Source of the DNA: Dehalococcoidia bacterium | Lineage (GTDB): Bacteria; Chloroflexota; Dehalococcoidia; Dehalococcoidales; E44-bin46 | Reading direction: 5' to 3' | Length of the DNA: 51,183 nt | Assembly: GCA_030605575.1 (NCBI GenBank) | Contig: JAUWIC010000071.1 | Coordinates: 1 to 51,183 of the forward strand | In this document: piece by piece, positions 6,886 to 48,550 of the stretch | Layout of the letters: each line of letters begins with the position of its first letter | Numbering within the stretch: position 1 is the first letter of the stretch | Notes under the pieces: generated by a model | What the model saw: the letters and a program-made list of their open reading frames with translations, nothing else | What the model was told of the DNA's origin: nothing | Databases searched by the model: none | Position numbers and translations under genes: made by a program

Positions 6886-6900
6886 ATTTAAGGAGATAAG

Positions 6901-7350: not shown

Positions 7351-7382
7351 CCGGTGAGGTGCCCGGCAAAGTCTGCGGTTAG

Positions 7383-9953: not shown

Positions 9954-10179
9954 TCAATAAGTCCCTCAGATAGCCACCTTTTTATTTATTTTACCATAAT
10001 TAAGAGATTACTTATCTCTGCCCCTCTCCTTCAAAGGGGGGGATATGAACCTAAAAGGAGAGGTTATTGACAGGTGAAAATGATTGTGATAGATTTTGTG
10101 TAATACTTTTGCCAAATGGCAAACATGTGTGATGTTGTCGACGCCTACAACCCCAGCTCCCCTGAGAGGAGGACGAGCC

Positions 10180-11739: not shown

Positions 11740-11777
11740 GACTCGTCGGTAACTGTCGGCGCAGGCTGTAGTTGTTA

Positions 11778-28221: not shown

Positions 28222-28311
28222 TGGCGGAGGGGGTGGGATTCGAACCCACGCTCGCCGTAAGACGAGAACGGTTTTCAAGACCGCCTCCTTAAACCACTCG
28301 GACACCCCTCC
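28222..28311 (-). tRNA. tRNA-Ser(UGA), class II, CCA encoded
   Basis: The reverse complement is GGAGGGG-TG-TCC-GAGTGGTTTAA-GGA-G-GCGGT-CTTGAAA-ACCGT-(long variable arm CTCGTC/GGCGAG)-GTGGG-TTCGAAT-CCCAC-CCCCTCC-G-CCA. Confidence 0.95.
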
Positions 28312-28388
28312 TGGTTACTTTTTGAAGCTAAATTAGACCTTATAGAGCTTTTACCAAGTAGACATAATTAGAAATAGCTAACGGATAG

Positions 28389-29576
28389 CTAACCAACTTT
28401 TCTAACAGTCTCATTTTCAGCCTCATTATACCTAGCGAGGAATGATTCGTCAAAGCGTTTGGCTGCTGCTTCCTGAAGCCCTGGCGACACGTGCGAATAA
28501 GTATCAAGAGTAATAGCTATACTGGAGTGGCCGAGACGTTCCTGAACAATCTTAGGATGTACCCCTTGTTTAAGCATAAGTGAGGCGTGGCTGTGCCTGG
28601 CATCGTGAAAGCGTATAACCTTGAGACCGGCACGGGTAGCCAATGAAGTCCAGGCACGAGTAACCGTATTAGGGCGTATGGGCTTACCGTCCAGGTGACT
28701 AAATACCAAGTCATTATCGGTTAAGGGTATCCCTAGCATCGCCCTTTCCAATTCCTGTTTCTTGCGGTGCTCATTAAGTACCAGAATAGCGGATGGGGGT
28801 AGCGCAACCGTTCGCCTTCCCTTAGCCGTCTTGGGTGACCTGAAAACAAAGCTGCCGTCTCTCAGTTGATGCAGGCTACGGCTTACATAAACTTGGCTTA
28901 GTATGAAGTCTACGTCTTGCCAGCGCAGGGCCAGAAGCTCGGAGCGCCTCATGCCAGTGAAAAGGGCGGTGTAAAATAGCGCATAATAAGGCGTGGACTT
29001 AGCGGCTTCAAGGAAGCGAGTTATATCATTTTCTCCCCACGTATGCATTTCTGGACGTTCCGCATGTGGCGGTCTAACAGCATCAGCGACGTTTCGTGAT
29101 AATAAGCCCCACTCTACCGCAGTTTGTAAGGCTTTGTGTAAGGCGGTATGGTGGTGTCTTACCGTTTGGGCACTCAAGCCGCATGAACTATCACAGCGCC
29201 CACTACATATCATCTCAGAATAATACTTCTGCAAGTGCTCGGGCTTAAGCTGTGTCAGGGTGATATTACCAAGCTGGGGAATAAGATGCTGGCGTATGAT
29301 AGTCTCATAACCTTCCACCGTTCTGGGGGCAAGGTTAGGCCAAGCATAATCTTTTAACCACCTCTCAAGGTATTCTGTTAAGGTCGTTTTACTAGGCTTC
29401 ATAAACGTGCCAGTGTCGAGCTGGTGAAGTAGCTCGGCAAGTCTCTTTTCAGCTTCTTTCTTTGTGCCCTTTATGCTAACCCATTGCTGCTTACGTTTGC
29501 CTGTGGCCGGGTCAGCCCCCATGTTTAAGACAATGGTGTAGCTATTCTTGTACCTCTTGACGATATGACCTCTCAT
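28389..29576 (-). CDS. tyrosine site-specific integrase (phage type, with N-terminal arm-binding domain)
   Basis: MRGHIVKRYKNSYTIVLNMGADPATGKRKQQW N-domain. Catalytic boxes are TGMRRSELLAL, HDARHSHASLML and LGHSSIAITLDTYSHV. GGAGGG lies upstream. Confidence 0.93.
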   Translation of the reverse strand: MRGHIVKRYKNSYTIVLNMGADPATGKRKQQWVSIKGTKKEAEKRLAELLHQLDTGTFMKPSKTTLTEYLERWLKDYAWPNLAPRTVEGYETIIRQHLIPQLGNITLTQLKPEHLQKYYSEMICSGRCDSSCGLSAQTVRHHHTALHKALQTAVEWGLLSRNVADAVRPPHAERPEMHTWGENDITRFLEAAKSTPYYALFYTALFTGMRRSELLALRWQDVDFILSQVYVSRSLHQLRDGSFVFRSPKTAKGRRTVALPPSAILVLNEHRKKQELERAMLGIPLTDNDLVFSHLDGKPIRPNTVTRAWTSLATRAGLKVIRFHDARHSHASLMLKQGVHPKIVQERLGHSSIAITLDTYSHVSPGLQEAAAKRFDESFLARYNEAENETVRKVG

Positions 29577-29599
29577 GGTGTGCCCTCCTTCTGCATGTC

Positions 29600-29868
29600 T
29601 GCTATTAATCTACCCTTTAAGTTCCGAATAACCCTCTAATAGATTATCTTGACTCCCTTCGAGTTCTGGTATTTAAGTTCTGGATGCAAGTCGTTCCATT
29701 CGTTTCTTACAGACTCCCAAAAGGCCACTGTTCCTTTGCCTTTTGGCGGGCCGCCCCTCTTCTGGACTAACTGGCAGATTTCCCATTGTTACTTGTAGCC
29801 GGACCTCTACCGATATCAATAGAGATTCCCCGCCTACCCTTAGACCGTTGACGAATATATCCTTTCAT
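29600..29868 (-). pseudogene. degenerate N-terminal fragment of a second integrase
   Basis: ATG 29868 gives MKGYIRQRSKGRRGISIDIGRGPAT..., which parallels MRGHIVKRYKNSYTIVLNMGADPATG of the neighbouring integrase, and stops after 33 codons. A shifted frame continues GRPAKRQRNSGLLGVCKKRMERLA (compare GKRKQQWVSIKGTKKEAEKRLA). No catalytic domain follows. Confidence 0.5.
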
Positions 29869-29870
29869 GG

Positions 29871-30308
29871 CTAACTCCCACCCTGAGTACGTATAACTGG
29901 TACCGGAGGTAGGTCTGGTTTTCCTTCCCGCTCATCTAGATATTTATGCAGGAATTGTTTGAATTTCTCACTACCTAAGGTATTTTCCACAATAGAAAGG
30001 AACCATCTCCACCCTTCATACTCTATGTCATCGCCAGCATCCCGGGCTTTCCACAAGCGAGGAAGAAGGTCTTCAGCCACAGTTGTTAGTGCTTGTCCCT
30101 TAATAGCTTCTGTTTCCTTCTTAGCCTTCTCTTTGAGGGCACGGTTGAGGACTCGACGATCTGTTTCCTTTTCCCACTTTTGCATCGATCTTACCGTGGG
30201 AGGATCAATATTAAACCTCTCCTTAATAGCGCGTCTAATCTCGCCCCATCCCTTTCCCTCACTCCGGCTATTAAGAGCAAATAACTTTACCTCGAAACTA
30301 AATCCCAT
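29871..30308 (-). CDS. hypothetical protein
   Basis: GGAGGTGA lies 4 nt before ATG 30308 (MGFSFEVKLF...). 145 aa, charged and helical. No family recognised. Confidence 0.6.
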   Translation of the reverse strand: MGFSFEVKLFALNSRSEGKGWGEIRRAIKERFNIDPPTVRSMQKWEKETDRRVLNRALKEKAKKETEAIKGQALTTVAEDLLPRLWKARDAGDDIEYEGWRWFLSIVENTLGSEKFKQFLHKYLDEREGKPDLPPVPVIRTQGGS

Positions 30309-30484
30309 AATTTCACCTCCATTCATATATTGTTCCGTTGCATTATAGAATTAGATATGTTATAATATGTTATTATGGCAAAATTACTGGTTATTAGCTA
30401 CGAATTTAGTATACCATAGATTTTCGTGTTTGTCAAGGGGGGGCTGTGGTAATTTTATAAAATCGAGCCTGACGGAGCCTGACA

Positions 30485-30706
30485 ATGGGGCAGAAAGATA
30501 ACTTGGACCTAACTAAACCGCTTTGCATCAGTGTCGTTGCCGCCGCGAGACTGCTCGGGGTATCCCGAAATACTGGCTACGAAATGGCGAGATTAGGGCA
30601 GCTCCCAACACTTAGATGTGGCCAGAGAAGATTAGTGGTTCCCAGAGCTGCCCTTATGAAAATGTTAGAGGAGGTAGGCGAACGACATGAAAAAAGGAAA
30701 GAGTAA
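30485..30706 (+). CDS. excisionase/AlpA-type helix-turn-helix DNA-binding protein
   Basis: ISVVAAARLLGVSRNTGYEMARLGQLPTLRCGQRRLVVPRAALMKML is the typical HTH_17/Xis pattern. Confidence 0.7.
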   Translation: MGQKDNLDLTKPLCISVVAAARLLGVSRNTGYEMARLGQLPTLRCGQRRLVVPRAALMKMLEEVGERHEKRKE

Positions 30707-31082
30707 CAAGAAGAGATCACCATCACGAGAGAAGTACGAGAAGGAAAACCCAACGGTAAGTGCCCGGTTGCCAAAGAAAACGCGTGAAAGACTCCGCATA
30801 GTCCTGGTCAAGTTGGGCATGAGTTTAGCGGATGCCCTAAAGGTCCTTGTCGGAGACCTTGAGGTCAAAACAAAACCCATTGACGAAGCAAGGCAGGAGG
30901 CCTATGACAAAGGTTGGGAAGATGGGATTGAGGCAGCCGAAGGTCTCTATGCGGTTTCATGTCCTTGTAGTAAATGTGGCAAAAAGAAAACAGTGATTGA
31001 TGAGGATGAGAAACAGGCCCTACGTAGATTCATGATGGCAAACCGATGGCATCATGCTGATTGTAATGACCTCTATAGCTAA
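30687..31082 (+). CDS. hypothetical protein, possible ribbon-helix-helix N-terminus with a Cys/His C-terminus
   Basis: VSARLPKKTRERLRIVLVKLGMSLADALKVLV is RHH-like. Also CPCSKCG...HHADC. Confidence 0.45.
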   Translation: MKKGKSNKKRSPSREKYEKENPTVSARLPKKTRERLRIVLVKLGMSLADALKVLVGDLEVKTKPIDEARQEAYDKGWEDGIEAAEGLYAVSCPCSKCGKKKTVIDEDEKQALRRFMMANRWHHADCNDLYS

Positions 31083-31119
31083 TTCTAGCTCACAATTGTG
31101 ACGATTGAAGGTTCAGGTA

Positions 31120-31824
31120 ATGAATAAAGCCTACTTAGAAGTTGGTGAGGTACAGAGATTAGAGCAGGTAGCTGACAACCTGCGAGATAAACTCCTTATC
31201 AGGCTACTGTTTCATCTCGGCTGCCGTATTTCCGAGGCTTTAGGAATCACGGTTAGTGATATTGACCTCAATGAAGCCACAGTGACTATTGAACACCTGA
31301 AGTCTCGTATTAGGCTTTCTTGCTCTAAGTGTGGTGCCAGGTTGGGGAAGAGCCACAGCTTCTGCCCCAAGTGTGGGGCTAAGGTAAAGGAGGCAGTGGC
31401 CATGGAGCGGGAGCACCGCAGGATGAGGACGCTACCTCTGGATAGGGATACTTTTGAAATGCTGAAGACTTACATTAAGCGCGGCGGTCCAGTAAATCAA
31501 AAAGGAAAGGTGCTTATCTTTGGCATCAATCGACACCGTGCCTGGCAGATTGTTAGGGAATGTGGTGAGAGAGCAGGATTGGGCAAACTAGTTAATCCCG
31601 AAACAGGCAGACTCCGTAATGTCAGTCCCCACCGGCTAAGGGATGCCTTTGCCGTCCATGCCATAAAGGTTGATGATTCTGGTGATGGGCTTAGACTCCT
31701 GCAGGAGCACCTCGGGCATGTCAGTTTTAACACTACCGCCAGATACAGAAAGGTAGCCGGCGAGGAACTGAAGGACTGGTACGACAGGCTCTGGAAGGAA
31801 GAGGTAAAGGTGGATGGACCTTAG
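31120..31824 (+). CDS. minimal tyrosine recombinase (catalytic domain only) with an inserted CxxC...CxxC zinc ribbon
   Basis: Boxes GCRISEAL (Arg), HRLRDAFAVHA (HxxR), LGHVSFNTTARYRKV (His, Tyr). Insertion CSKCGARLGKSHSFCPKCGAK. No N-terminal core-binding domain. The start is ATG 31120 or TTG 31105. Confidence 0.75.
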   Translation: MNKAYLEVGEVQRLEQVADNLRDKLLIRLLFHLGCRISEALGITVSDIDLNEATVTIEHLKSRIRLSCSKCGARLGKSHSFCPKCGAKVKEAVAMEREHRRMRTLPLDRDTFEMLKTYIKRGGPVNQKGKVLIFGINRHRAWQIVRECGERAGLGKLVNPETGRLRNVSPHRLRDAFAVHAIKVDDSGDGLRLLQEHLGHVSFNTTARYRKVAGEELKDWYDRLWKEEVKVDGP

Positions 31825-32362
31825 ACCAGCAATCGGCGGTTTTCTCCGGCCATTCGGCACTGCCTGGTTCATTATCCAGTTTCTGAAGGGTAATGCGCCA
31901 GAGGATTCGAAGCGGATAGACCCTGAAGTCGGTGCCCCAATGACAGACATTCATTACGAATATAAGAGCGCTCTCCACAGGGCGCATGCCAGGGATTCCG
32001 TAGAGAGGGAAGAGGAAAGGCAGATAATTAAAGGTCAGCCCGCCTACACTGAAGAAGAGTATGCGGCGCGATTAGAGTATTACTTGAGTCGTATCCCCTA
32101 TAAGCTGCTTAAGATGAGATATTCCAGCTTTACCCGGTATTTCGGCCATTTGAAGCGCCTTGGTTGGGTTGAAGAGACAGGCAAGACTGAGCCATCGGCA
32201 ATTCAGGATGACTATCCGCCAGCACCTCCCAGGGTGTACTATCGACTCACCGATGCCGTTAAGAAGGCATCCGCGGCTGAAATATCCGACCCAGTAATGA
32301 CTCTCTACCATTACTCCAGAGCACAGAGAAGTGCCAAAAACCGTTCATATATCAGGGCATAG
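31814..32362 (+). CDS. hypothetical protein overlapping the recombinase stop
   Basis: 182 aa with an 11-nt overlap with 31120..31824. FTRYFGHLKRLGWVEETGK...RVYYRLT may be a winged helix. No family assigned. Confidence 0.5.
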   Translation: MDLRPAIGGFLRPFGTAWFIIQFLKGNAPEDSKRIDPEVGAPMTDIHYEYKSALHRAHARDSVEREEERQIIKGQPAYTEEEYAARLEYYLSRIPYKLLKMRYSSFTRYFGHLKRLGWVEETGKTEPSAIQDDYPPAPPRVYYRLTDAVKKASAAEISDPVMTLYHYSRAQRSAKNRSYIRA

Positions 32363-32446
32363 ATAAAAAATCATTCAATGCCCGAGAACGAACCCCTAGA
32401 TTTATATTTCAGGACTTCATATTATCTCCACAATTCCCGTTCCACG

Positions 32447-32474
32447 AAAAGCCCCCTTTAAGGGGGCTTTTTAT
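32447..32474 (+). terminator. intrinsic terminator
   Basis: AAAAGCCCCC-TTTAA-GGGGGCTTTTT. Confidence 0.75.
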
Positions 32475-32709
32475 TGTCCAAGAAAAGGTCTCTTTCATAT
32501 AGGTAGGAGGGGGGAGGATGCAATTGCTTCCTCACATATAACAAAAGCCTATTTTGTTCAATAATGAAACTACAAAACAAAGCACATTAACAACTGAATA
32601 GAGCCACCAGAAGCCAAATCTGGACGCTTGCCCAGTCTGGGTAAACAAAATGCCCTAGCTAGCGGTAACTAGACTAGGGCAGGTCTAACAAAACGGAGGT
32701 TAGCCGACA

Positions 32710-33186
32710 ATGCTAGACTGGAGCAAGTATATTACAATAGCTGAAAAATTTCAACACAAAGCAAAGCGTCAGGATAGAGACGACTTGAACCACAATATAA
32801 TTGTAAGCCTTGCCAATGTCCAAATCGGGCTAGACGGTAATGGCGGGGGTCAATTATCCGAGTTAGCTATGCTACGGATTGCCTCTTACGAGTGTAAAAA
32901 GTATTGGCGAGCCGAATACCGTAACGGTAGGGTTATAAGTCTCAATACGATTATAGCTGACGGTGAAGGCAACACTACGGAGCTAATAGACACTCTAGCC
33001 GACGACAAGGCGATTGACCTAGAGGCTTGGATTGACGAAGCCACTTGGCGGTTAGGTTGCCCACAAAGGTTAGTGGACATAGCCCAAAAGAGCCTTAAGG
33101 GCATACCGCTAAACCGCAAAGAGCAAACCTATTTTAACCACTACCAAACTAGACACTTAAAAAAGTCTCAAAAAACCCTGTTTTAG
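32710..33186 (+). CDS. hypothetical protein, possibly a small sigma-70-like or late transcription regulator
   Basis: GGAGG upstream. The acidic linker ELIDTLADDKAIDLEAWIDEATW followed by PQRLVDIAQKSLKGIPLNRKEQ resembles sigma region 3/4. Weak. Confidence 0.3.
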   Translation: MLDWSKYITIAEKFQHKAKRQDRDDLNHNIIVSLANVQIGLDGNGGGQLSELAMLRIASYECKKYWRAEYRNGRVISLNTIIADGEGNTTELIDTLADDKAIDLEAWIDEATWRLGCPQRLVDIAQKSLKGIPLNRKEQTYFNHYQTRHLKKSQKTLF

Positions 33187-33387
33187 TGGCGGATTTTGCC
33201 CTCTGAAATGTCCTATATATAGTAGGGACTACTGATTATGCCAGCGGGTTGCGGATAGTCAGCTAGTTACTACTAGGCAAAGCCGATAGCCTTGCCCACT
33301 ATCGGATAGCCAAAAGGGGGTGTTCTAATAGAACAACTGAATATTGAGGGCAAGCGTTCAGGTGAAGGCTTTGTCTGCCATAGGCAG

Positions 33388-34518
33388 ATGCTGGTTAGTG
33401 CCCTGTCAAGGGCAATAGCCGATAGAGTGATGTTAATGGACATTACTCTAGGGCGTAAAGGCTTACTCGGATACCTAAAGGCTTTAGGCGGGTCAAATGT
33501 AGTCAAGGTTATACCGTCTAACGGTAGTGCTAGCGGGTCGCAGGCTACCGATAAGAGGCTTAAAGTTATCTGTGGAGCTAATACCAGCACCATAACCGAT
33601 AGCGACTGGATAGGCGACAAAACGCCTATGACGCTGTGTGAGGTTAGGGTTAGCCCGTCTAATACCGTAACGCCTAATGTCGGAGCTAGTGAGCTAGCCG
33701 AGGCACTTAATAGAGTATTACCGTTTACCTCAAAAGATGACAACCGACCAGTTTTAGCCTGTGTCAACTTTGAGGCAAAAGACGGTAAATTAACTCTGGT
33801 TAGTAGTGATGGCTTTAGGCTAGCGGTAGTTAGCCTTGACTATGCCGACGGTGAGGGTCAAACCTTGATTAACCGTGATAGCCTCAAAGGCGTTGGCAAC
33901 GCCTTGCGAAAGGCAAAGCGGGTTAGGGTCAGCTTTGAGGCTGGCGGTGAGACAATCGGTGGTATGAGCCTCATTATAGACACCGAGCTAGTCCGCTATA
34001 AGTGGCAAGGCGTCAATGGTGATTATCCCGACTACCAAAAGCTGATACCTACCGAGTTTAATACCTTTGCGTCTTTTGACACGGTAGAGGCAATCAAGGC
34101 GGTTAACTCACTCAAAGCCTTATCGGACAATCCGAAAGACTATCCTATTGACCTAACCATTGGCAATGGTAAAATAGTTATGGCTAATCCCGATAATAAG
34201 GGTCAAGCCGAGCTAGTAGCCGATACCAATGGACAAGGCAAGGTAAGGATAGACGGTAGTTATCTGGCTAGTGTCCTCAAGGCTTGTGGTGGTATGGTGG
34301 AGCTTAAGCTCACCAATGCCTACTCACCAATGCTGTTTAGCCAAAACGGTTATCAAGTGGTAGTAATGCCAATGCTAACCAATGAGGCTAATGAGCAGGC
34401 TAAAAAGGATAGAGAGGCTAAACAAGCCGAACCAGTAGCCGAGCCAGCCGAGCCTGTAGCCGATAAGCCTAAAACGGCAAAGCGTAGCCGAGCCAAAGAG
34501 CCTGTCAAAACCGTATAG
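33388..34518 (+). CDS. DNA polymerase III beta sliding-clamp homologue (island-encoded) with a charged Pro/Lys/Glu tail
   Basis: Matches to E. coli DnaN domains II-III: SSDGFRLAV (ATDGHRLAV), GDYPDYQKLIP (GRFPDYRRVLP), IDGSYLASVLKA (FNVSYVLDVLNA) and YQVVVMPMLT (YVVMPMRL). ATG 33388 has no SD. The frame is open from 33310, and AAGGGGGTG-N5-ATA at 33314-33330 suggests a start at 33328. Confidence 0.75.
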   Translation: MLVSALSRAIADRVMLMDITLGRKGLLGYLKALGGSNVVKVIPSNGSASGSQATDKRLKVICGANTSTITDSDWIGDKTPMTLCEVRVSPSNTVTPNVGASELAEALNRVLPFTSKDDNRPVLACVNFEAKDGKLTLVSSDGFRLAVVSLDYADGEGQTLINRDSLKGVGNALRKAKRVRVSFEAGGETIGGMSLIIDTELVRYKWQGVNGDYPDYQKLIPTEFNTFASFDTVEAIKAVNSLKALSDNPKDYPIDLTIGNGKIVMANPDNKGQAELVADTNGQGKVRIDGSYLASVLKACGGMVELKLTNAYSPMLFSQNGYQVVVMPMLTNEANEQAKKDREAKQAEPVAEPAEPVADKPKTAKRSRAKEPVKTV

Positions 34519-34553
34519 AACGCTATAGCCCGAAATGAACAGCCACGCAAAAG

Positions 34554-34578
34554 AGCGGGGGATGACCCCGCTTTTTTG
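34554..34578 (+). terminator. intrinsic terminator
   Basis: AGCGGGG-GATGA-CCCCGCT followed by TTTTTTGCTTTTTT. Confidence 0.8.
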
Positions 34579-34650
34579 CTTTTTTCAGGGGGTTATGCTC
34601 CCCCAGCGTGGGAGTGTAACCCCCCTTTTTTGTGGCTAGAAGGGAGAGAT

Positions 34651-34830
34651 ATGGACATAGTTTACCCGTGTAAAAACACCAGAAAGTGCTACTGGCTTTG
34701 TAGGGGGTGTCTTAAAGGGCACAGCCACCGATGTTCTCCAAAGTGTCCCGATTACCTCTCCATAGCCAAAGTCAAAAATGCTCGGAAAGGAGGTGAAATA
34801 TGGTTATCAAGTGGAGTGCGGTCAAGGTGA
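34651..34830 (+). CDS. small Cys-rich hypothetical protein
   Basis: GGGAGAG before ATG 34651. MDIVYPCKNTRKCYWLCRGCLKGHSHRCSPKCPDY has 8 Cys in 35 residues. Confidence 0.45.
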   Translation: MDIVYPCKNTRKCYWLCRGCLKGHSHRCSPKCPDYLSIAKVKNARKGGEIWLSSGVRSR

Positions 34831-35093
34831 GTGAGGCTATGGATGATGTTGAGGCTCAAATCTCACTAGCTGACCAATTCTTTGCTGAAGCTCGGAAGAA
34901 GGCTAACGAGGCTCGTAATATCCCTGACCTGCCCCAGTATATTGACCATCGCCTCATCGGTCTGGTTGAGGAGATTAACCGAATTGACCGTATCAAGGAC
35001 AGGATTGAATCTGTCCGCCGTGACATCCCTGACGGAGCGATAGAGGCGGAGCGGGAAAGCCAGAAGTATGGTAGCCAGCAGTCAATAATCTAG
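34800..35093 (+). CDS. hypothetical protein
   Basis: AAAGGAGGTGA lies 4 nt before ATG 34800. 97 aa, helical and charged. Confidence 0.6.
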   Translation: MVIKWSAVKVSEAMDDVEAQISLADQFFAEARKKANEARNIPDLPQYIDHRLIGLVEEINRIDRIKDRIESVRRDIPDGAIEAERESQKYGSQQSII

Positions 35094-35165
35094 CTGGATT
35101 AGCTTATCTAAGCGAATCCGAAGGGGTAACTATGCCCAAAATCAAGAAGAAAGGAGGTGAGACAG

Positions 35166-35321
35166 ATGACATACAAACTGATGCTCTTCGTCGCATTCAT
35201 CGGGCTGGGATTGTATTTCTTCGGATACACCCAAAACTCGGTTGCTATGCAGGTCGCCGGGGGCATCCTCACCAGCTCAATGTTTGCCGTCTATATGCTC
35301 AGGAAACTAGTAAGGAGGTGA
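35166..35321 (+). CDS. small two-TM membrane protein (51 aa), below the ORF-track cutoff
   Basis: AAGGAGGTGA lies 5 nt before ATG 35166. MTYKLMLFVAFIGLGLYFFGYTQNSVAMQVAGGILTSSMFAVYMLRKLVRR*. Preferred over the overlapping 35132..35347 ORF, which has no SD. Confidence 0.6.
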   Translation: MTYKLMLFVAFIGLGLYFFGYTQNSVAMQVAGGILTSSMFAVYMLRKLVRR

Positions 35322-35330
35322 CAACTGAAT

Positions 35331-35792
35331 ATGGCTCAATCAATTGAGAAAGGCATCTCCGACATCGTGGGTGTCTTTACCGACCCTATTATTGTCTTTC
35401 CTGGGGGCTGGGGAGACACGCTTCCCGAGTGGCTAAAGAACGCCATCACCCTGGAGAGACTGGAGATGAATATGAGGGCACTCAAAGGCGAGCAGATGAC
35501 CGGGGCGGATGCTGAAGCCTGTGCCTATCTTTACACGGCTGCCTTAACTCAGCCGATGGACCATGACTGGACTCAAATCTACCTTTACATTGCTGGCAAA
35601 ACCTACCGCCGATGGGGTAAGAATGAGATGCCCGGCGATATCGCAGTTGACTCGCTAAGGGATGACCAGCTATCGGAGCTCAACCGTCTCAAGGAGTGGC
35701 TCTACCAGAAGCGAACCCAGGCTAGACTTGACCGGGAGCGAACTGAGCGAAGGCAGAGAAAGGAGGAAGAGGCAGCCGAGAGGAAGGCCTGA
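35331..35792 (+). CDS. hypothetical protein
   Basis: 153 aa with TAAGGAGGTGA upstream. The C-terminal basic/acidic helix is RLDRERTERRQRKEEEAAERKA. Confidence 0.6.
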   Translation: MAQSIEKGISDIVGVFTDPIIVFPGGWGDTLPEWLKNAITLERLEMNMRALKGEQMTGADAEACAYLYTAALTQPMDHDWTQIYLYIAGKTYRRWGKNEMPGDIAVDSLRDDQLSELNRLKEWLYQKRTQARLDRERTERRQRKEEEAAERKA

Positions 35793-35834
35793 GCAGCCCG
35801 CATTGTTTGAGTTCTAGTGGTCGACTAAGTAATC

Positions 35835-35871
35835 AGAGGGTCGAGCCCTTCATCTCGACCCTCTTTTTTTA
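35835..35871 (+). terminator. intrinsic terminator between convergent genes
   Basis: AGAGGGTCGAG-CCCTTCAT-CTCGACCCTCT followed by TTTTTTT. Confidence 0.85.
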
Positions 35872-35919
35872 TCTCTGCGTCTGCACAAAACAAGCTTTTG
35901 TTACCCACGAGTTGGCAAG

Positions 35920-36162
35920 TCATGCCTTATCTTTATCCGAAGGACTTTGTCTGAACTTAGCCTTCAGAGCCTCGATTTCTTGTTGCCTTTGCAACTCTTC
36001 TCTAGAAAGAGGTTGACAAGATTTAAGCTGCCCAGCCTGCACTCTTATAGAGAAAAGCCCGTGGCACTTCCAACATGTGTAGGGACCTTCATAATCCGGA
36101 TTGACGAATGAGACGCGACCTTCAGTGGCACAACTGGGGCATTTTATTGTCAATACTGCCAT
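35920..36162 (-). CDS. zinc-ribbon hypothetical protein
   Basis: GGAGG upstream. CPSC...CWKC in the first 45 residues. Confidence 0.6.
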   Translation of the reverse strand: MAVLTIKCPSCATEGRVSFVNPDYEGPYTCWKCHGLFSIRVQAGQLKSCQPLSREELQRQQEIEALKAKFRQSPSDKDKA

Positions 36163-36293
36163 ACTCTAACCTCCAGGCGACGATTGAATACTATTATGTC
36201 CAGATTATAACACGTCTCTCACTGGATTGTTCATCGCCAAATCCGAGAGGTCCCAAAACAACAAAATGGACTTTTGTGATCTAGGCCACGAGC

Positions 36294-36914
36294 TTAGAAG
36301 CCGTTCTTTTTCTCCAGAAATTGATTAACTATTCCCTCCGCATGATTTTCAATAGATTCAAAGCTACGTGCAGTACCACTCAAGTATTGGATGTAGTGTA
36401 ATGCCTCATGTACTGCTGTTATGAGGTTCTCTCTACGTGAACTCCTAGAAGTGAAGGATGAATTGAGGAGGATCAAGAAGTCCGCATCCTTGTTTTGAAC
36501 CGCAAGTTTGTACATGAATACGCATTTTCCCCTCAACCTTTTTGGGGCTTGTGGTGGTCTCAGGTATGGTTCTACTACCATCATCATAGCAGCAGACTGC
36601 AAATACTCGTCCAGGCTGATCTCTTCCCCATACTCTTTCCCTATTTCCTTTCCTAAACGAAAGACCTCGTGGAGTTTCTCTCTAAGTGCATCGTTCCGTT
36701 CGAGTTCGCTCCGCTCTTCTTCCGTCGCTATAGCCTTTTTCAGCTCATCCTTTATTATCGCGGAGGATTCGTCAAGCAGTGCTCTCTCCGTCGATAGTTT
36801 TTTCCAGCTACCGTATGTTAGTGGAACAATCCGCCATTTAGCTCTAACTCCATGAATTCGTAGAGTAGACTGGACTATTTCCTTCATCTCTTTAAGTAGT
36901 ACTTCAACTGCCAT
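36294..36914 (-). CDS. hypothetical protein with a C-terminal HExxH motif (possible metallopeptidase)
   Basis: AGGTG lies 6 nt before ATG 36914. The only motif is ITAVHEALHYIQY near the C-terminus. Confidence 0.45.
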   Translation of the reverse strand: MAVEVLLKEMKEIVQSTLRIHGVRAKWRIVPLTYGSWKKLSTERALLDESSAIIKDELKKAIATEEERSELERNDALREKLHEVFRLGKEIGKEYGEEISLDEYLQSAAMMMVVEPYLRPPQAPKRLRGKCVFMYKLAVQNKDADFLILLNSSFTSRSSRRENLITAVHEALHYIQYLSGTARSFESIENHAEGIVNQFLEKKNGF

Positions 36915-37251
36915 CGTGTTCACCTATATACTGCCTGTGCCCAGAGCATATACCTAGGCGCTTTCTTCAAGCTGCCTGTTTCACTGTTATGCCGCCCTCG
37001 CGGAGGTCGGCTTCCAACCCGAGGTCCATTGAGGAAGTATAGCCGGGGAGCCTATTATAGCGCAAATGTTATCAACAATACGCCCAAATGTGCAATTCAT
37101 TCTAGCGTTGGGGAAGTTATCCAATCGTGGGTGTTCAGATGGCCTAACAAAATAAACCACAACCAACCGCTATTTACTGTTTCTATTCTATTCCTTGGGC
37201 TGAGTATGACTTTTGACCCAGAGAGGAACCCAATTTTGAGGTGCTCTGTCA

Positions 37252-37506
37252 CTATAGTGTCTCTAAGAAGGCAATGAGCTTCTTATAAAACTCTCTTTGT
37301 TCCTCATAAAATGTTTGACTTGTGGTAGTGTCCAAATTGGGTTCAGCCTGAATCTTTTTCTCAAGTTCAGCGATAATAACTTTTGCTGAGTCTTTCCCAT
37401 GCCCCCAGTCTTCTGAGAGAATATTGCGGTTATTTGAGCCACAGTTTGGGCAGGCTACATCGGTAGCTTTCAATATATGGCCACAGTCCTTACAATAAAT
37501 AATCAT
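37252..37506 (-). CDS. zinc-ribbon hypothetical protein
   Basis: AAGGAGGAGGG upstream. MIIYCKDCGHILKATDVACPNCGS. Confidence 0.65.
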   Translation of the reverse strand: MIIYCKDCGHILKATDVACPNCGSNNRNILSEDWGHGKDSAKVIIAELEKKIQAEPNLDTTTSQTFYEEQREFYKKLIAFLETL

Positions 37507-37578
37507 TTCCCTCCTCCTTACTTAACCTCCTTGCGCTACTAAGAATGGCTCCCACTTCTTCCCGCTGCCTCTGGTCCC

Positions 37579-38181
37579 TTAGACCAACCAGGTTGTGGAC
37601 GGCGGATTGTCAATGCTGATGTTCAGCTTAGTCACCATATCCTTAACGGTCTTACAGGCCCATTCGGCTTTGTCGCAGTTGAACATGTTGATTGTGCCTT
37701 CAGTCCTGCCATACTTTGTCTCCACAACATCGCCAAATTTTGGCTTCATGTGGACTAAATACTTATTGCGTATCTTCTTTAACTTTAGAAATGACTTAAA
37801 TGGCTCTTTTGTTTCACAGAAGATGCTGGTTAGCTTCCCCGCTTTCTTAGAAGCAAGGGCTTCTGACACTACTATCCATTTGGCCTTCGTGGAGCTACCT
37901 TTACACTTCTGCCAATTGCTAATGCTACGCCTATCTTTGCCGACAGTGTTGACATAGGCCTCCAGGCAAGTATATGAAAACAGGATGCTAATCATTGATT
38001 CCTCGATTTCCGCCTTCATATCCTTGTATATGTCTTTGCCTGCCACCTGCTTTGCCCGGTCTCTATGCTCTTTGGCTATCTCATACATGTACATGAACAG
38101 CTCTGTCCGCGTCTTAACTGCGACTGTCGCATTCATACCCACAGCTCCGTTACCGACTTGCACATTTCTAGTTTCTGTCAT
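37579..38181 (-). CDS. HEPN-like protein (putative RNase)
   Basis: AAGGAG upstream. All-helical 200 aa with FKSFLKLKKIRNKYLVH (R-x5-H with RN, within the HEPN Rx4-6H pattern) and an earlier LEAYVN helix. From motifs only. Confidence 0.4.
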   Translation of the reverse strand: MTETRNVQVGNGAVGMNATVAVKTRTELFMYMYEIAKEHRDRAKQVAGKDIYKDMKAEIEESMISILFSYTCLEAYVNTVGKDRRSISNWQKCKGSSTKAKWIVVSEALASKKAGKLTSIFCETKEPFKSFLKLKKIRNKYLVHMKPKFGDVVETKYGRTEGTINMFNCDKAEWACKTVKDMVTKLNISIDNPPSTTWLV

Positions 38182-38241
38182 TTCTTCACTCCTTCTTGGT
38201 AGGGCTAGAGCTGCCCTTACTTCTTTTGCTCATCGGCCTAT

Positions 38242-38433
38242 TTACGCTTCTAGGATGCCTCTGACTAGCCGAATGAGTTCCACCTCTTTGGCGAAATCTA
38301 GTGGGTGTAATTCCAAAACCCTATATAACTCCCCCGGCTCCTTTGGCATTATTGGGACAATCTCTTTGACCTCATCCTCTGAGACACCGAGCAGTCCCAA
38401 GCCCAGTTTTTCAAAGACCTTAAACCTTTTGCA
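38242..38433 (-). other. 63-codon open frame continuing in-frame past the TAA stop of the upstream ORF
   Basis: ...VYVAYPLE-TAA-CKRFKVFEKLGLGLLGVSEDEVKEIVPIMPKEPGELYRVLELHPLDFAKEVELIRLVRGILEA*. No ATG or GTG in the first 30 codons, though TTG codons occur at codons 10 and 12 (KLGLG). Confidence 0.35.
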
Positions 38434-38721
38434 TTATTCCAATGGATAGGCTACATATACCAGTGTTGCAAGCGTCTTCAATATCATGCACTTTCCTATG
38501 GCTTCCATAATTTTGTGCAGGTCGGTTTCTACTTCAACGATGACGGCTCTGCTATCAGCTTCTTTTACTCCCACTATGTCAGGAACCATGTGGACTCTCG
38601 TGGGCAGAATATCCCCTATGGGAATTACCAGTTGCTGCTCATCGCCACCAGTGACAAGGACTTGAAAACCCTGAGTCTCCAGCCACTTCTTAATGGGTTG
38701 ATATAGCTCTTTCTGTCCCAT
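38434..38721 (-). CDS. hypothetical protein, possibly a restriction-endonuclease-like fold
   Basis: GGAGGG lies 5 nt before ATG 38721. VPDIVGV...VIVEVETD resembles a PD-(D/E)xK core, but the Lys is not conserved. Confidence 0.4.
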   Translation of the reverse strand: MGQKELYQPIKKWLETQGFQVLVTGGDEQQLVIPIGDILPTRVHMVPDIVGVKEADSRAVIVEVETDLHKIMEAIGKCMILKTLATLVYVAYPLE

Positions 38722-40524: not shown

Positions 40525-41199
40525 TTAGCGTGGATTTTCTTCTACATCCTTTACCTCGGTCACCAATCCCTGCTGCACAGCATAGACTGATGCTTGCTGC
40601 CGGTTACGCAACTGCAGTTTCCCCAGTATGTGTTTGACATGAACCTTGGCTGTATTCTCGGTAATAAATAGTGTATCGCCTATCTCTTTGTTGGTGTGCC
40701 CTTTAGCTAATAACTTCAAAATCTCTTGTTCCCGGTCTGAAAGACCATCCTTGACTTCAGCCTCGCTCCGTTTCATTTCGGTGAACTTATCAACAAGCTT
40801 TTCAGCGAGAGGAGGAGATACGACAACCTCACCCTTCCTAATCAAGTCAATAGATTCAATAAGGTCACCAACTTTCATATCTTTGAGGAGATATCCGGTG
40901 GCTCCAGCGTCTATAGAAGAGAAGAGGCCCTCTTCGTTTTTAGAATCAGTAAGCACGGCAACCTTTACCTCTGGAGATGATTCGTTCATCTGCCTAATGG
41001 CTTTAACACCGTCGCATTCAGAGATGTCAGTATCGATTAAAACTATATCAGGCTTAGCCTCTCTGACCTTCTCGATAGCCTCGTTTCCATTAGAGCATTG
41101 AGAAACCACATCAATATGTTCTTGTTCGTCTAACAGTCTAGCTAGTCCTTCTCGGAAGATTTCTTTCTCGTCTGCTAAAAGTACCTTTGTTTGCTCCAT
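40525..41199 (-). CDS. NarL/LuxR-family response regulator
   Basis: REC domain (VLLADEKE...PDIVLIDTDISECDG) plus a LuxR HTH (LSDREQEILKLLAKGHTNKEIGDTLFITENTAKVHVKHILGKL). No kinase is adjacent. Confidence 0.9.
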   Translation of the reverse strand: MEQTKVLLADEKEIFREGLARLLDEQEHIDVVSQCSNGNEAIEKVREAKPDIVLIDTDISECDGVKAIRQMNESSPEVKVAVLTDSKNEEGLFSSIDAGATGYLLKDMKVGDLIESIDLIRKGEVVVSPPLAEKLVDKFTEMKRSEAEVKDGLSDREQEILKLLAKGHTNKEIGDTLFITENTAKVHVKHILGKLQLRNRQQASVYAVQQGLVTEVKDVEENPR

Positions 41200-41375: not shown

Positions 41376-42041
41376 ATGACTGACGCTTTAATCAAACAGA
41401 GGATTAGGCAGATACTTGACCTCTTGAAGGAAGAATATGGTGTCCCTGAGTGGCAATCCGATTATGACCCGCTTTCGGTGTTAGTCCAAACTATCCTCTC
41501 CCAGAATACATCAGATGCAAATTCAAGAGGTGCCTTCCAATCACTCATGGCTTCTTTTGATAACTGGGAAGATGTAGCCGATGCCGATGTTGATACCATT
41601 GCATCTTGCATTAAATGTGGTGGGTTGGGGAGGATAAAGGCACAAAGGGTCAAGCAAGCGCTTGAAGAAATTATGCAAAAGCGGGGGAGGCTCGAACTGG
41701 ATTTCCTGAATCAGCTTACCTCGTCTGGTGCCGAGGGTTGGCTTCAGCAACTACCCGGAGTAGGACTGAAGACAGCACGGTGCGTATTGCTTTTTTCACT
41801 GGGGATGCCGGTTCTGCCCGTGGATACCCATATCTTGCGAGTGACCAAGCGACTGGGGCTAATCAGTCCTAAAGCCTCACTACATGAGGCGCATCACTCA
41901 CTAGAGGAAGTAGTCCTGCCAGAGGATATCTATCAATTCCACATCCTTATAATAGAGCACGAAAGAAGGCGGTGTCAGGCACGACGCCCGCACTGCCAAG
42001 GCTGTGTGCTGAAAAGGACATGCATGAGCTACAACCTGTGA
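41376..42041 (+). CDS. nth: endonuclease III / HhH-GPD DNA glycosylase
   Basis: HhH motif LPGVGLKTARCVLLF, VDTHILRV and the Fe-S loop C-x6-C-x2-C-x5-C (CQARRPHCQGCVLKRTC). Confidence 0.85.
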   Translation: MTDALIKQRIRQILDLLKEEYGVPEWQSDYDPLSVLVQTILSQNTSDANSRGAFQSLMASFDNWEDVADADVDTIASCIKCGGLGRIKAQRVKQALEEIMQKRGRLELDFLNQLTSSGAEGWLQQLPGVGLKTARCVLLFSLGMPVLPVDTHILRVTKRLGLISPKASLHEAHHSLEEVVLPEDIYQFHILIIEHERRRCQARRPHCQGCVLKRTCMSYNL

Positions 42042-42140
42042 ACATGCAAGGTAGCAAAGGCTATGAAGTGCAATCCAAGGAGATTGTTGACATTCCGGTA
42101 AGGAATGGTTTATTCTCCATGCAAAAAGGAGGTAGCCCTA

Positions 42141-42287
42141 ATGCAAGGATATTGTGTGAAGTGTCGTACCAAAAGGGAAATGAAGGATGCCAAGGCAATA
42201 ACCATGAAAAACGGTAAGCTGGCGACTCAGGGTGTGTGCCCCGTATGCGGGACTAAGATGTTCAGGATAGGAAAGAGTCAAAGCTGA
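42141..42287 (+). CDS. DUF5679-type zinc-ribbon protein
   Basis: AAAGGAGG lies 8 nt before ATG 42141. MQGYCVKCRTKREMKDAKAITMKNGKLATQGVCPVCGTKMFRIGK. Confidence 0.7.
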   Translation: MQGYCVKCRTKREMKDAKAITMKNGKLATQGVCPVCGTKMFRIGKSQS

Positions 42288-42304: not shown

Positions 42305-42359
42305 GAGTAATAAAGAAGCTGGGTATTTTTATTAAATTTACCCAGCTTCTTTATTACTC
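42305..42359. repeat. perfect 21-bp inverted repeat (hairpin) at the composition boundary
   Basis: GAGTAATAAAGAAGCTGGGTA-13 nt-TACCCAGCTTCTTTATTACTC. No T-tract follows. Confidence 0.85.
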
Positions 42360-42494
42360 GTACAATTCGTCAGAAAGTTGGCAGAACAATACTTAAAACT
42401 CGTGACCGTGCTTTTCCTAGCGATTAATAAAGTGTTAAACTTAGCAAAGAGCAAATATCTGACACTTTGCAAAAATGAGAATTGGGAGGTATAA

Positions 42495-42992
42495 GTGATA
42501 GTGATTCATGTGCCAGGTAAACCTAATTATAAATCAATAAGGATACAGACAAGATGCAGGAACGATATCGAGAACCGACAGGTCTATGATTTCTCTGCGA
42601 GTGAGCTGAGTGCCATACCCGATTATAGTAGGGACTACCGGGGGGCAGAGTTACGAAACAAACCAAACCCAATATATAACTGCTACGGAATGACTTTTGC
42701 ATGTGCACGAACGACGGTAGGTCCTGAGTCTGTTCAAATGATATTAGACGATGATGGATACACTGAAATACAAAATGCGGACGAAGTTCTTCCGGGAGAT
42801 GTTATAATCTATTATAATGATAATGGCGAAATATGGCACTCAGGAATAGTAGTATCAAAACCTTCGGATGAACGAATTAAGATTCCATGGGTGGTCAGCA
42901 AGTGGGGAAAATACAGTGAGGTCTATCATCAAGCATACGATGTTCCATACCGCCCGATTGCACAAGTACGCTACTGGAGAATAACAAAATGA
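42495..42992 (+). CDS. cytoplasmic papain-fold (NlpC/P60- or CHAP-like) Cys/His protein; cassette gene A
   Basis: GGGAGG lies 5 nt before GTG 42495. Candidate nucleophile PIYNC63YGMTFA and candidate His GDVIIYYNDNGEIWH115SGIVV, in NlpC/P60 order and spacing. No signal peptide. Confidence 0.55.
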   Translation: MIVIHVPGKPNYKSIRIQTRCRNDIENRQVYDFSASELSAIPDYSRDYRGAELRNKPNPIYNCYGMTFACARTTVGPESVQMILDDDGYTEIQNADEVLPGDVIIYYNDNGEIWHSGIVVSKPSDERIKIPWVVSKWGKYSEVYHQAYDVPYRPIAQVRYWRITK

Positions 42993-43510
42993 TATCAATT
43001 GATATAGAGGCACTAAAAAGAGAGTATCTTTTTGCAAATACTGTAGAACAGCTTTATCAGCATTTCAGAGAGAATACCTCATTGCAAAACTTAGCAAAAA
43101 CGGAAAAGCCAGAAATCTTAGTTGAAGGATACAAGAAGAGAACAGAGAAGGATGAGAGGAGTATTAAGGATGTAGTTGAAGCATATGCGGTACTAATAGC
43201 TGTTACATTCTATGATTACAAAGAAGCGATAAAAATATTCAAGAAGTTCGACTTATCAAAACTTGAATGGGGTGAAGAACTAAAGGATATTTATAGGCGA
43301 GAGGCAAGAATCACAATCTACATAACTGGGCAAGGTAGAGGACAAGTATTGAAAGAAATTCATACGCGTGGGTCAGGAACTATGAGCTACATAAAGGGAC
43401 AAGTTAAAGGTGTAGTAGGTGATTTTAAGCAGACCAAGTCGGAGACTTCAAATGCAGTTTTAAGTACATTTGTACCGATTAATAAGTCAGCAAAGGGAGA
43501 TAGAAGATGA
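42989..43510 (+). CDS. hypothetical protein; cassette gene B
   Basis: ATGA overlap with gene A. 173 aa with a helical N-part and a Gly/Lys-rich C-part (GQGRGQVLKEIHTRGSGTMSYIKGQVKGVVGDFK). No motif recognised. Confidence 0.6.
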   Translation: MISIDIEALKREYLFANTVEQLYQHFRENTSLQNLAKTEKPEILVEGYKKRTEKDERSIKDVVEAYAVLIAVTFYDYKEAIKIFKKFDLSKLEWGEELKDIYRREARITIYITGQGRGQVLKEIHTRGSGTMSYIKGQVKGVVGDFKQTKSETSNAVLSTFVPINKSAKGDRR

Positions 43511-43908
43511 TAAGACCAAAACTGTTATTGTGTGCTGAAGGAGTAGTAGTCGATCAAAGGACAAATAATGCATCTGCATTCAACATTCTGGAACAGTTGA
43601 ATTTCAAGAGTTTACCTGTTGTATTCCCAAAGATGGTTATATTAAGCATTCTAGAGAGAGAAAAAGGAGACCTCGAAAAGTGGAAGGGTAGACTTCGTAT
43701 TGATATAGCAGGATCGATCATTATAGATCAACCACTAGAGCACAACTTTAAGGGTCTACATAGAAGCAGAAACATGTTGATCCTTGGAGGACTACCAATT
43801 ACACAGCCTGGAACAATGGAGATATCCTTGGTTAAAAATGACAAGAAAATAATATCGTATACAATCGAGGTTATAATTCCGCCAGGGCCCAAAATCGAAA
43901 CAAGCTAG
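43507..43908 (+). CDS. hypothetical beta-rich protein; cassette gene C (possibly DUF6941-like)
   Basis: ATGA overlap with gene B and GGGAGA upstream. PKLLLCAEGVVVDQRTNNASAFNILEQLNFKSLPVVFPKMVILSIL resembles the DUF6941 family as I remember it. Unverified. Confidence 0.55.
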   Translation: MIRPKLLLCAEGVVVDQRTNNASAFNILEQLNFKSLPVVFPKMVILSILEREKGDLEKWKGRLRIDIAGSIIIDQPLEHNFKGLHRSRNMLILGGLPITQPGTMEISLVKNDKKIISYTIEVIIPPGPKIETS

Positions 43909-44109
43909 TCTCGTCAAAAGAGAAGGTACCTCAAGCAATCATCTTTGCAACCGATACAAGCAGTTTGAAAATGATGCTTTTAGGGGAGTAGTTGCAGGGA
44001 TGTTCTATATACCCGAAGTACAATATAGTTCCTTTGAGTTCTCAGCGAGAGTTCTTATCGGTTAACAATTAGCCAGTTTGTTTAGCCAGTCGAACTACTC
44101 CTTGGGCAC

Positions 44110-48311: not shown

Positions 48312-48550
48312 AAAATAAAATCCCCCTCTGCTTAATACAGCAAGGGGGGATTTCTCACCTAACCTTGGTCATTATCCCACCCCCTTTCTCCGCGGAGGCC
48401 TGAGAATACCCAGAGGTTCGGCGTTCTGGCTTGTGGTAGAAATTATCTACCACTCACAGTAGGCGGGACTGCGTCGGATTCTCACCGACTTGCTCTCCGA
48501 TTATGCCTGAATTATCTCAGGCACCTCTGAGCCGCCTATTAAGTTTTCTA
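48312..48550 (-). promoter_or_regulatory. cobalamin riboswitch with a terminator expression platform
   Basis: The minus strand reads GGTGAGAATCCGACGCAGTCCCGCCTACTGTGAG (B12-box core) at about 48450-48490. It is followed by AAATCCCCCCTTGCTG-TATT-AAGCAGAGGGGGATTTTATTTT at about 48312-48353, 50 nt before the btuF start. Confidence 0.85.

Follow-up and report, generated by a model that had tools for sequence, protein, structure and literature searches.

A compact three-gene cassette shared by distant bacterial phyla: a candidate NlpC/P60-like hydrolase with two fast-evolving partners and a possible role in conflict

In the genome of a Dehalococcoidia bacterium (assembly GCA_030605575.1) we found a cassette of three small co-directional genes, here called A, B and C, whose co-occurrence across bacteria is effectively obligate. 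The cassette is located on contig JAUWIC010000071.1, and the stretch analysed (positions 1 to 51,183 of the forward strand) is referred to as the window throughout. Its parts are a predicted divergent member of a known enzyme superfamily, a catalogued domain of unknown function (DUF) and a family that is in no database. We tentatively interpret the cassette as a self-contained, horizontally mobile module of the toxin-antitoxin or another conflict type, in which A would be the effector and B and/or C would restrain or direct it. This interpretation was favored over that of a metabolic operon because the trio is obligate, its genes are coupled, it is mobile and AT-rich, its neighbors are unrelated from locus to locus, and a conserved, putatively catalytic effector is accompanied by fast-evolving partners.

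Recurrence and mobility of the trio

Gene A (42495..42992, plus strand, 165 aa) begins with a GTG codon 7 nt after a GGGAGG Shine-Dalgarno sequence. It is followed on the same strand by gene B (42989..43510, 173 aa), an open reading frame (ORF) without a family in the libraries searched, and by gene C (43507..43908, 133 aa), which encodes a protein of Pfam family DUF6941. Both junctions are ATGA stop/start overlaps (42989-42992 and 43507-43510). An earlier reading of the window from its letters alone, hereafter the sequence-only reading, had described three ORFs chained in this way into one operon, and the coordinates as well as both overlaps were confirmed.

A scan of 185,579 species representatives (one genome per species) yielded 88 relatives of A, and 80 loci were kept. 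Tallied from the titles of the sequence records, the hosts of the cassette belong to about 18 phyla, including Acidobacteriota, Planctomycetota, Ignavibacteriota, Nitrospirota, Verrucomicrobiota, Bacteroidota, Chloroflexota, Armatimonadota, Desulfobacterota, Myxococcota, Actinomycetota, Gemmatimonadota, Spirochaetota, Omnitrophota, KSB1, Poribacteria and Saccharibacteria; alpha-, beta- and gamma-Proteobacteria are also among them. About 50 homologues of A were found by shared words, and all long contigs encoding such a homologue carried A followed by a gene of the size of B and then by a DUF6941 gene, e.g. those of a Dehalococcoidia metagenome-assembled genome (MAG), of Rugamonas aquatica and of JGI metagenomes.

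With a first set of hidden Markov models (HMMs) applied to all ORFs, A, a slot of about 430 nt and C were detected on one strand in approximately 75 of 87 loci, and the slot was filled by an ORF in nearly all loci. Iterated HMMs placed 73 of 79 slot ORFs in a single B family, and the remaining group, termed variant B, was homologous to B according to hhalign (E 2e-7, probability 93.6%, 111 columns). A wider C model detected C in 84 of 88 sources and recovered the apparent exceptions L052, L070, L076 and L084, in which C is longer or divergent. The four sources without C comprised three contig ends and one insertion of an IS21 element: in that locus (L078:10652-12985) IS21-type istB/istA genes follow directly after A, B and C are missing, and the cassette was disrupted by the insertion sequence. 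The sequence-only reading had left it to further searches whether A, B and C co-occur in the same order in other genomes or never do so, and these counts answer in favor of a syntenic trio. An ATGA overlap terminates A in 42 and B in 26 of 75 loci.

No fourth conserved gene was found near the cassette among the loci. Only in Dehalococcoidia AB-539-J10 (L003 / L092-L094) an ORF of 194-241 aa without Pfam match precedes A by 65 nt on the same strand (L092: 4348-4932); it may be a fourth component restricted to this lineage or have no relation to the cassette. Three loci from Planctomycetota (L024, L030 and L053) share their flanking genes, with the cassette at a fixed place.

The three genes differ in the rate at which they diverge. 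Mean pairwise identity over 2,334 locus pairs was highest for A (0.40) and lower for B (0.22) and C (0.26), and the divergences of A, B and C were correlated (r ~0.6). Such a pattern, in which a conserved enzyme is joined by two partners that diverge quickly and in a correlated way, is expected of an effector with co-evolving regulators or immunity partners.

The cassette also differs from its surroundings in base composition. In windows of 300 nt its GC content was 0.36-0.42 compared to 0.45-0.53 in nth and cobU on either side, and the overall values were 38.8% for the cassette and 47.0% for the 5-kb flanks, in agreement with the AT-richness relative to nth and cobU that had been noted before. 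The same bias was found in 70 of 71 loci, with a mean difference of 9.4 GC points and a maximum of 32. The closest relative of the window cassette (L090/L091) is 87.7% identical on the DNA level, and its neighbors are different ones, namely a methyltransferase gene, an Exo_endo_phos gene and cbiQ/cbiO. The bias and the exchanged neighbors bear out the proposal of the sequence-only reading that the cassette was separately acquired.

The comparison with L090/L091 also delimited the transferred unit. DNA homology starts at 42368 and includes the end of C; from there it persists at 76% identity up to position ~44075, which is 35 nt short of the stop of cobU. Because the homology spans exactly this stretch, the transferred unit is approximately 1.7 kb long and consists of a leader, A-B-C and a 3' tail. 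The leader or promoter region (42368..42494, plus strand, 127 nt) travels with the cassette, holds the ribosome-binding site GGGAGG of A and shows the same degree of conservation as the coding DNA in L090/L091 despite the other genomic context; no significant RNA structure was detected in it (z = +0.28). The non-coding tail (43909..44075, plus strand, end approximate, ~170 nt) is the part common to L090/L091 at the lower identity, and it contained no ORF and no significant RNA structure (z = -0.32). Rfam families were found in neither region. The transferred unit carries no recombinase and no terminal repeats, as a search for repeats flanking the cassette gave no convincing candidates. In L090 an insertion of 118 nt (1659-1775) was observed immediately after the stop of C, corresponding to window position 43908/43909, inside the otherwise conserved tail.

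A hairpin precedes the cassette at 42305..42359 (plus strand). It has a perfect 21-bp stem within arms of 27 nt that are 93% complementary, a folding energy of -35.7 kcal/mol and a z-score of -8.2, and none of 200 shuffled sequences folded as well. The sequence-only reading had taken it as the left edge of the cassette; the perfect stem was reproduced, while its ownership was not. The hairpin starts 18 nt past the stop of an upstream DUF5679 ORF and ends 9 nt before the homology to L090/L091 sets in, and because of this position outside the shared DNA it belongs to the host side of the junction. It was not called by a simple terminator scan and has no U-tract. Despite the absent U-tract, the hairpin is probably the terminator of the DUF5679 gene.

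The closest syntenic relative of the window (L095) has collinear upstream genes, including an nth that is 81% identical. Synteny ends right after nth, and DUF5679, cassette and cob operon are all absent from the following 6 kb (6667-12663). Since synteny stops right there, the junction after nth fits a rearrangement hotspot or variable junction. For the same reason L095 did not provide a clean empty insertion site.

Properties of the three proteins

The product of gene A carries a set of strictly conserved residues. In an alignment of 68 diverse members Y61, N62, C63, G65, T67, F68, R72, D87, G101, H115, K136, E142 and H145 were invariant and D102, S116, G117, S135, W137 and G138 were conserved in at least 90%. 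C63 and H115, which the sequence-only reading had pointed out as candidate catalytic residues, were invariant also in 48 close members. The cysteine is followed after about 35 residues by a GD motif (101-102) that leads into a strand of the AlphaFold2 model (103-107), and after about 12 more residues by His115 on the next strand (113-119). S135, E142 and H145 sit on the next two model strands after the His strand, and one of them may be the third, polar catalytic residue (His/Asn/Glu/Ser) that enzymes of this kind carry behind the His strand. Hallmarks of the NlpC/P60-CHAP cluster are a GD motif on the beta-strand before the His strand and triads of the Cys-His-His/Ser/Glu type (PMC10318531). 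The motif order of A is thus the canonical, non-permuted arrangement of NlpC/P60-CHAP enzymes.

Matches of A to these enzymes were all of low significance and repeatedly pointed in the same direction. The AlphaFold2 model had a mean predicted local distance difference test (pLDDT) score of 86.5 with an alignment depth of 48 sequences. Its most probable Foldseek matches were Spr/MepS (2k1g, probability 0.90), an NlpC/P60 protein of T. thermophilus (4xcm, 0.77) and CHAP lysins, and in BFVD entries named CHAP, NlpC/P60, endolysin, 'hydrolase' or 'protease' (0.9-1.0). All of these had E > 1e-3 and query TM-scores (TMq) of 0.29-0.38 over ~80-100 core columns. A narrow profile of A matched a single PDB sequence, the C40 peptidase 6bim (E 0.064), with the Cys and His motifs aligned. 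Aligned by hhalign to E. coli MepS, a comparison that serves as a lead only, A superposed on all three motifs (E 0.0065, probability 5.8%).

Among Pfam models the A protein of the window scored best with DUF7689 at 16.7 bits (E 0.012), below the threshold of 22.6, and one homologue (P0029) is annotated as DUF7689; the window protein had no match to the NLPC_P60, CHAP, Amidase_5/6 or DUF1287 models. When the 48 close and the 68 diverse members were scanned singly against Pfam, sub-threshold matches were obtained to DUF7689 (19 and 16 members, respectively), NLPC_P60 (4 and 10), DUF1287 (8 and 9), CHAP (0 and 7), Amidase_6 (6 and 5), AIM3_BBC1_C, a family with cysteine-proteinase fold (0 and 3), and Amidase_5 (1 and 1). 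The best scores in the diverse set, again below threshold, were 2.7e-5 for CHAP and 1.7e-3 for NLPC_P60. A is therefore a member of no defined family. It is very probably a divergent and catalytically intact member of the NlpC/P60-CHAP superfamily.

Compared to enzymes of NlpC/P60 (MEROPS C40) and CHAP (C51), such as E. coli MepS/Spr and the type VI secretion effector Tse1, A is alike in its non-permuted Cys-GD-His order and its small single-domain size. The Cys motif is YNCHG in A and IDCSG in MepS, and the His motif is HSGIV and HVGIY, respectively. A differs by a unique N-terminal beta-hairpin extension of 55 residues (1-55 in the model) and by an S-K-W-G ... E ... H block that is invariant and follows the His strand. 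Further differences are its predicted cytoplasmic location, the lack of a cell-wall-binding domain, the constant company of B and C and the lack of any above-threshold match. No signal peptide, hydrophobic N-terminus or transmembrane segment was found in A, and no hydrophobic N-terminus or transmembrane segment in B. The absence of a signal peptide from A had been reported correctly, but it does not by itself exclude a cell-wall target, since such peptides are missing from secreted effectors and endolysins as well.

The A family is large in metagenomes, where 3,324 clusters at 50% identity matched at E <= 1e-3, 1,696 at <= 1e-10 and 331 at <= 1e-30. The 150 best-matching relatives were all 103-266 aa long with a single matched stretch, and there were no large multi-domain fusions among them.

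Gene B encodes a predicted helical domain of about 110 aa in which only A16 and N17 of an A-N-T-P motif and W94 are near-invariant. After W94 follows a tail of 7-79 residues which is unalignable between lineages and contains 16% Ser and 9% Thr past its first 30 residues; this tail is probably disordered. B belonged to no family in Pfam, NCBIfam, PHROGs or PADLOC, in line with the earlier statement that it carries no recognized motif, and a narrow profile found no relative in the PDB. A wide profile gave only weak PDB matches, all to designed helical bundles, which would agree with an all-helical domain. We also considered B as a precursor resembling those of ribosomally synthesized and post-translationally modified peptides, with a helical leader, a variable core and A as a C39-like leader peptidase. 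This idea was rejected because modification enzymes and transporters were not encoded nearby, because the tail contains no conserved cleavage motif or Cys, and because the match of A to the C39 fold was only weak (probability 0.16).

Gene C matched Pfam DUF6941 (PF22091) with 29.9 bits at a gathering threshold of 27, covering profile positions 4-124 of 125, and 27 of 35 C homologues are annotated with PF22091. The resemblance to DUF6941 that the sequence-only reading had suggested is hereby placed on a profile match. The model of C (pLDDT 91.3) is a nine-strand beta-sandwich, and its N-terminus forms the first beta-strand and not a signal peptide. It had 43 PDB matches at E <= 1e-3, of which the top ones were UNC119/PDE6delta (E 5e-5 to 1e-3, probability 1.0) with a TM-score of ~0.47, a root-mean-square deviation of ~6.8 A and 5-8% identity over ~145 aligned columns. 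Generic FnIII-like domains of GH3 enzymes matched about as well. The UNC119/PDE6delta/RhoGDI sandwiches are thus the closest structural matches, but they are eukaryotic proteins without sequence relationship to C, and neither narrow nor wide C profiles matched a PDB sequence. Conserved positions are few (D16, P37, F81, R88 and G102).

In Actinomycetota and Armatimonadota C carries an additional C-terminal domain of about 100 aa. C is about 235-240 aa long in L052 (11021-11725) and L070 (3972-4697) and about 197 aa in L076 (10828-11421). The extension in L052 and L070 contains a RG-x-GG-[FY]-QS-[FL]-[FL]-RRLQ motif and had no match in Pfam. All three loci also carry the divergent variant B.

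Genomic surroundings in the window

To the left of the cassette the window encodes a HesB-like protein, a PRC-barrel protein, a LuxR-type response regulator (40525-41199), nth (41376-42041) and, directly upstream, a DUF5679 zinc-ribbon ORF (42105-42287, 60 aa, E 3.9e-17). To the right and convergent to it are cobU, cobC, cobS, cobT and a BtuF-like gene. A cobalamin riboswitch (48398-48543, minus strand; Rfam RF00174, 42 bits) is located upstream of the BtuF-like gene and cobT-cobS-cobC-cobU; this salvage operon abuts the cassette. The identities of the flanking genes nth and cobU were as given by the sequence-only reading.

Further upstream a tRNA-Ser(tga) gene (28222-28311) precedes a tyrosine integrase (28389-29576, minus strand), followed by an integrase fragment fused to a zinc ribbon (31105-31824) and a divergent DNA polymerase III beta-clamp-like ORF (33388-34518). 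The region 28222-38450, which also carries several ORFs without Pfam match, looks like an integrative element at tRNA-Ser that is unrelated to the cassette. These integrases are the only ones in the window and sit about 13 kb upstream of the cassette with housekeeping genes in between; therefore the cassette is not inside an integrase-bounded island. The corresponding claim of the sequence-only reading, an island of this kind with conflict-type genes nearby, had to be abandoned, also in view of cobUCST on the right side.

Interpretation of the cassette

If the cassette is a conflict module, the products of A, B and C would most likely function jointly in a single cytoplasmic complex. A would be the conserved catalytic effector, an amidase or peptidase using Cys63 and His115, and would be harmful when unrestrained. 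B and C would be the rapidly diverging partners that restrain A or direct it to specific targets, one of them possibly as an inhibitor or sensor. The module may have a role in phage defence and might serve addiction or abortive infection rather than a housekeeping pathway.

Several traits are shared with toxin-antitoxin modules: small co-directional overlapping genes, a patchy horizontal spread, insertion among housekeeping genes without an own recombinase, and a conserved enzyme with fast partners. Tripartite toxin-antitoxin-chaperone modules exist, and in the staphopain-staphostatin operon a papain-like protease is encoded with a dedicated beta-fold inhibitor. Chagasin and staphostatin are precedents for Ig-like inhibitors of papain-fold enzymes, and antitoxins have labile regions, which the variable Ser/Thr-rich tail of B would resemble. 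On the other hand, most antitoxins of type II modules have a DNA-binding domain and none was recognizable in B or C, and A, B and C showed no similarity to known toxin, antitoxin, staphostatin or chagasin families in Pfam, NCBIfam and PADLOC.

A number of results weigh against a conflict module with a papain-fold effector. Residues 61-76 of A, where the Cys helix is expected, were modelled as coil with a pLDDT of only ~63 (residues 61-70), the model had no Foldseek match at E <= 1e-3, and the wide A profile had no match among PDB sequences at E <= 10. Of the earlier claim of a papain-fold hydrolase the Cys...GD...His order was therefore retained and the statistical significance was not; as no single test was significant and the matches nevertheless agree, we regard the fold assignment as weak but consistent. 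None of the three proteins matched a family of PADLOC-DB v2 at E <= 1. Neither the B and C proteins of the window nor 10 divergent variants of them contained a helix-turn-helix, ribbon-helix-helix or AbrB domain according to Pfam and NCBIfam. Searches for the cassette in 72,556 plasmids and 50,697 phage genomes were negative. Frameshifts and truncations were spread about evenly over A, B and C, and as many of them are in long-read MAGs they may be sequencing errors; toxin-specific decay was for these reasons dropped as an argument.

The neighborhoods belong to the same side of the balance. The 119 immediate (+-1) neighbors of the loci matched 112 different Pfam families, nearly all of housekeeping type; the mobile-type exceptions were two IS1595 transposases, one phage portal protein and one PDDEXK_2 transposase. 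PADLOC matches were LmuB, NsnC, mad6, MkoA and a kinase among these neighbors, and NsnB, mad3 and two OLD/Gabija/PARIS-type ATPases among 117 neighbors at +-2. By these raw counts PADLOC models match no more than a few percent of the neighbors at +-1 and +-2. An enrichment next to defence genes, for which the sequence-only reading had proposed a test, was thus not supported, and the association with defence genes is at most mild.

The cassette occasionally resides in prophage-like regions and defence islands. An exception among the loci is that of Rugamonas aquatica (WHUG01000006; L002 / L014), where the cassette is located between an integrase and LmuB_C (Lamassu-like), MC3 and CTD7 genes, a setting that clearly qualifies as a defence or conflict island; further upstream are a faint Colicin_Pyocin-like gene and a PTS_2-RNA gene. 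In IMG/VR two A loci on viral contigs were found (L088 and L089). One of them, L088, carries the full trio, and within a few kb of it there is a large ORF that was labelled terminase by reading, with no family search behind the label.

No named system with this trio was known to the sequence-only reading, and this still applies after searches in PADLOC, in NCBIfam and PHROGs, where A, B and C gave nothing usable, and in the literature on DUF6941, DUF7689, PF22091, PF24738 and NlpC/P60 combined with defence or toxin-antitoxin terms, where no description of the trio was found. C is above threshold for DUF6941 (PF22091), while A and 16-19 of its relatives only weakly match DUF7689 (PF24738). Both families are uncharacterized and without literature that we could find, and neither family description, as far as checked, includes the A-B-C operon. 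We consider with some doubt a more specific version of the conflict reading, according to which the trio would be an undescribed, widespread tripartite system of the abortive-infection or addiction type, with a cytoplasmic NlpC/P60-like effector acting on an intracellular target under the control of an UNC119-like sandwich and a helical protein whose Ser/Thr tail could be a sensor or degron.

An alternative that we regard as unlikely, yet deserving of serious attention, is a cytoplasmic complex outside of any conflict, with A as an amidase, peptidase or deconjugating enzyme, C as a substrate- or ligand-binding subunit and B as a scaffold. Peptides, murein-peptide recycling products or thiol-polyamine conjugates would be candidate substrates. 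The mostly housekeeping neighbors, the fixed place in the three Planctomycetota and the missing PADLOC match are in accordance with this. Moreover, cytoplasmic members of the superfamily exist, such as the CHAP-family glutathionylspermidine amidase, and Ig-like domains are the target-recognition modules of Amidase_5 enzymes (PMC10318531). However, a conserved metabolic neighbor was missing, and the distribution is very patchy with 88 of 185,579 species representatives. The AT-richness in 70 of 71 hosts and the differing contexts of near-identical copies point to frequent transfer, and the much faster evolution of B and C compared to A would be unusual for a fixed substrate-binding subunit.

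The fold of C led us to a further alternative, which appears rather improbable and is compatible with either a conflict or a housekeeping role. Here A would be an acyl-hydrolase or -transferase acting on a lipidated substrate, in the manner of the LRAT/PLAAT-type relatives of NlpC/P60, and C a chaperone similar to UNC119/PDE6delta that presents or sequesters the acyl chain. All top PDB matches of the C model are such lipid-binding sandwiches, and the NlpC/P60 superfamily includes the LRAT acyltransferases (PMC10318531). With a TM-score of ~0.47 and similar scores for FnIII-like GH3 domains, the match may only reflect a common Ig-like sandwich, and the Cys-then-His order of A is non-permuted, unlike that of LRAT.

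It is very improbable that A is an exported peptidoglycan amidase with C as immunity protein and B as adaptor or chaperone, as in Tse1/Tsi1, Tae/Tai or polymorphic-toxin cassettes. A is similar in size to the Tse1/Tae effectors, in which signal peptides are likewise absent, fast partners would fit immunity, and some A members weakly match Amidase_6, the Tae3 family. B and C have neither signal peptide nor lipobox, so that the periplasm would remain unprotected, and secretion-system, PAAR, VgrG or Hcp families were not among the recurrent Pfam families of the +-1 neighbors. A also lacks an N-terminal trafficking domain, and its top 150 relatives are all short (103-266 aa) with a single matched stretch. 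The cassette occurs in Dehalococcoidia and Saccharibacteria, in which, to our knowledge, a type VI secretion system is not expected. Membership of Tse1 and Tae3 in the NlpC/P60-CHAP cluster is established (PMC10318531). A remnant of phage lysis or morphogenesis genes with A as an endolysin-like CHAP enzyme, to which the endolysins among the BFVD matches and the two IMG/VR loci could be related, is largely refuted, as no holin or transmembrane protein was found, A had no match in the 50,697 phage genomes and C none in IMG/VR, neighborhoods are mostly non-phage, and the intact trio is strictly conserved, unlike a remnant.

The tentative reading as a conflict module is directly testable, as the cassette is only 1.7 kb long, precisely delimited and present in culturable strains, namely Rugamonas aquatica FT29W, Mucilaginibacter oryzae DSM 19975, Chthoniobacter flavus Ellin428 and Mesorhizobium sp. 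AR07. How mini-cassettes of this sort move is a small puzzle, given the AT bias in nearly all hosts and the spread without recombinase, plasmid or phage vehicle. If the conflict reading is true, an intracellular Cys hydrolase of NlpC/P60 type would be a new effector class for bacterial immunity or toxin-antitoxin systems, accompanied by two new partner folds and a new regulatory architecture. It would also provide a first function for DUF6941, for the A family with its 3,324 metagenomic clusters and for the B family that is absent from databases.

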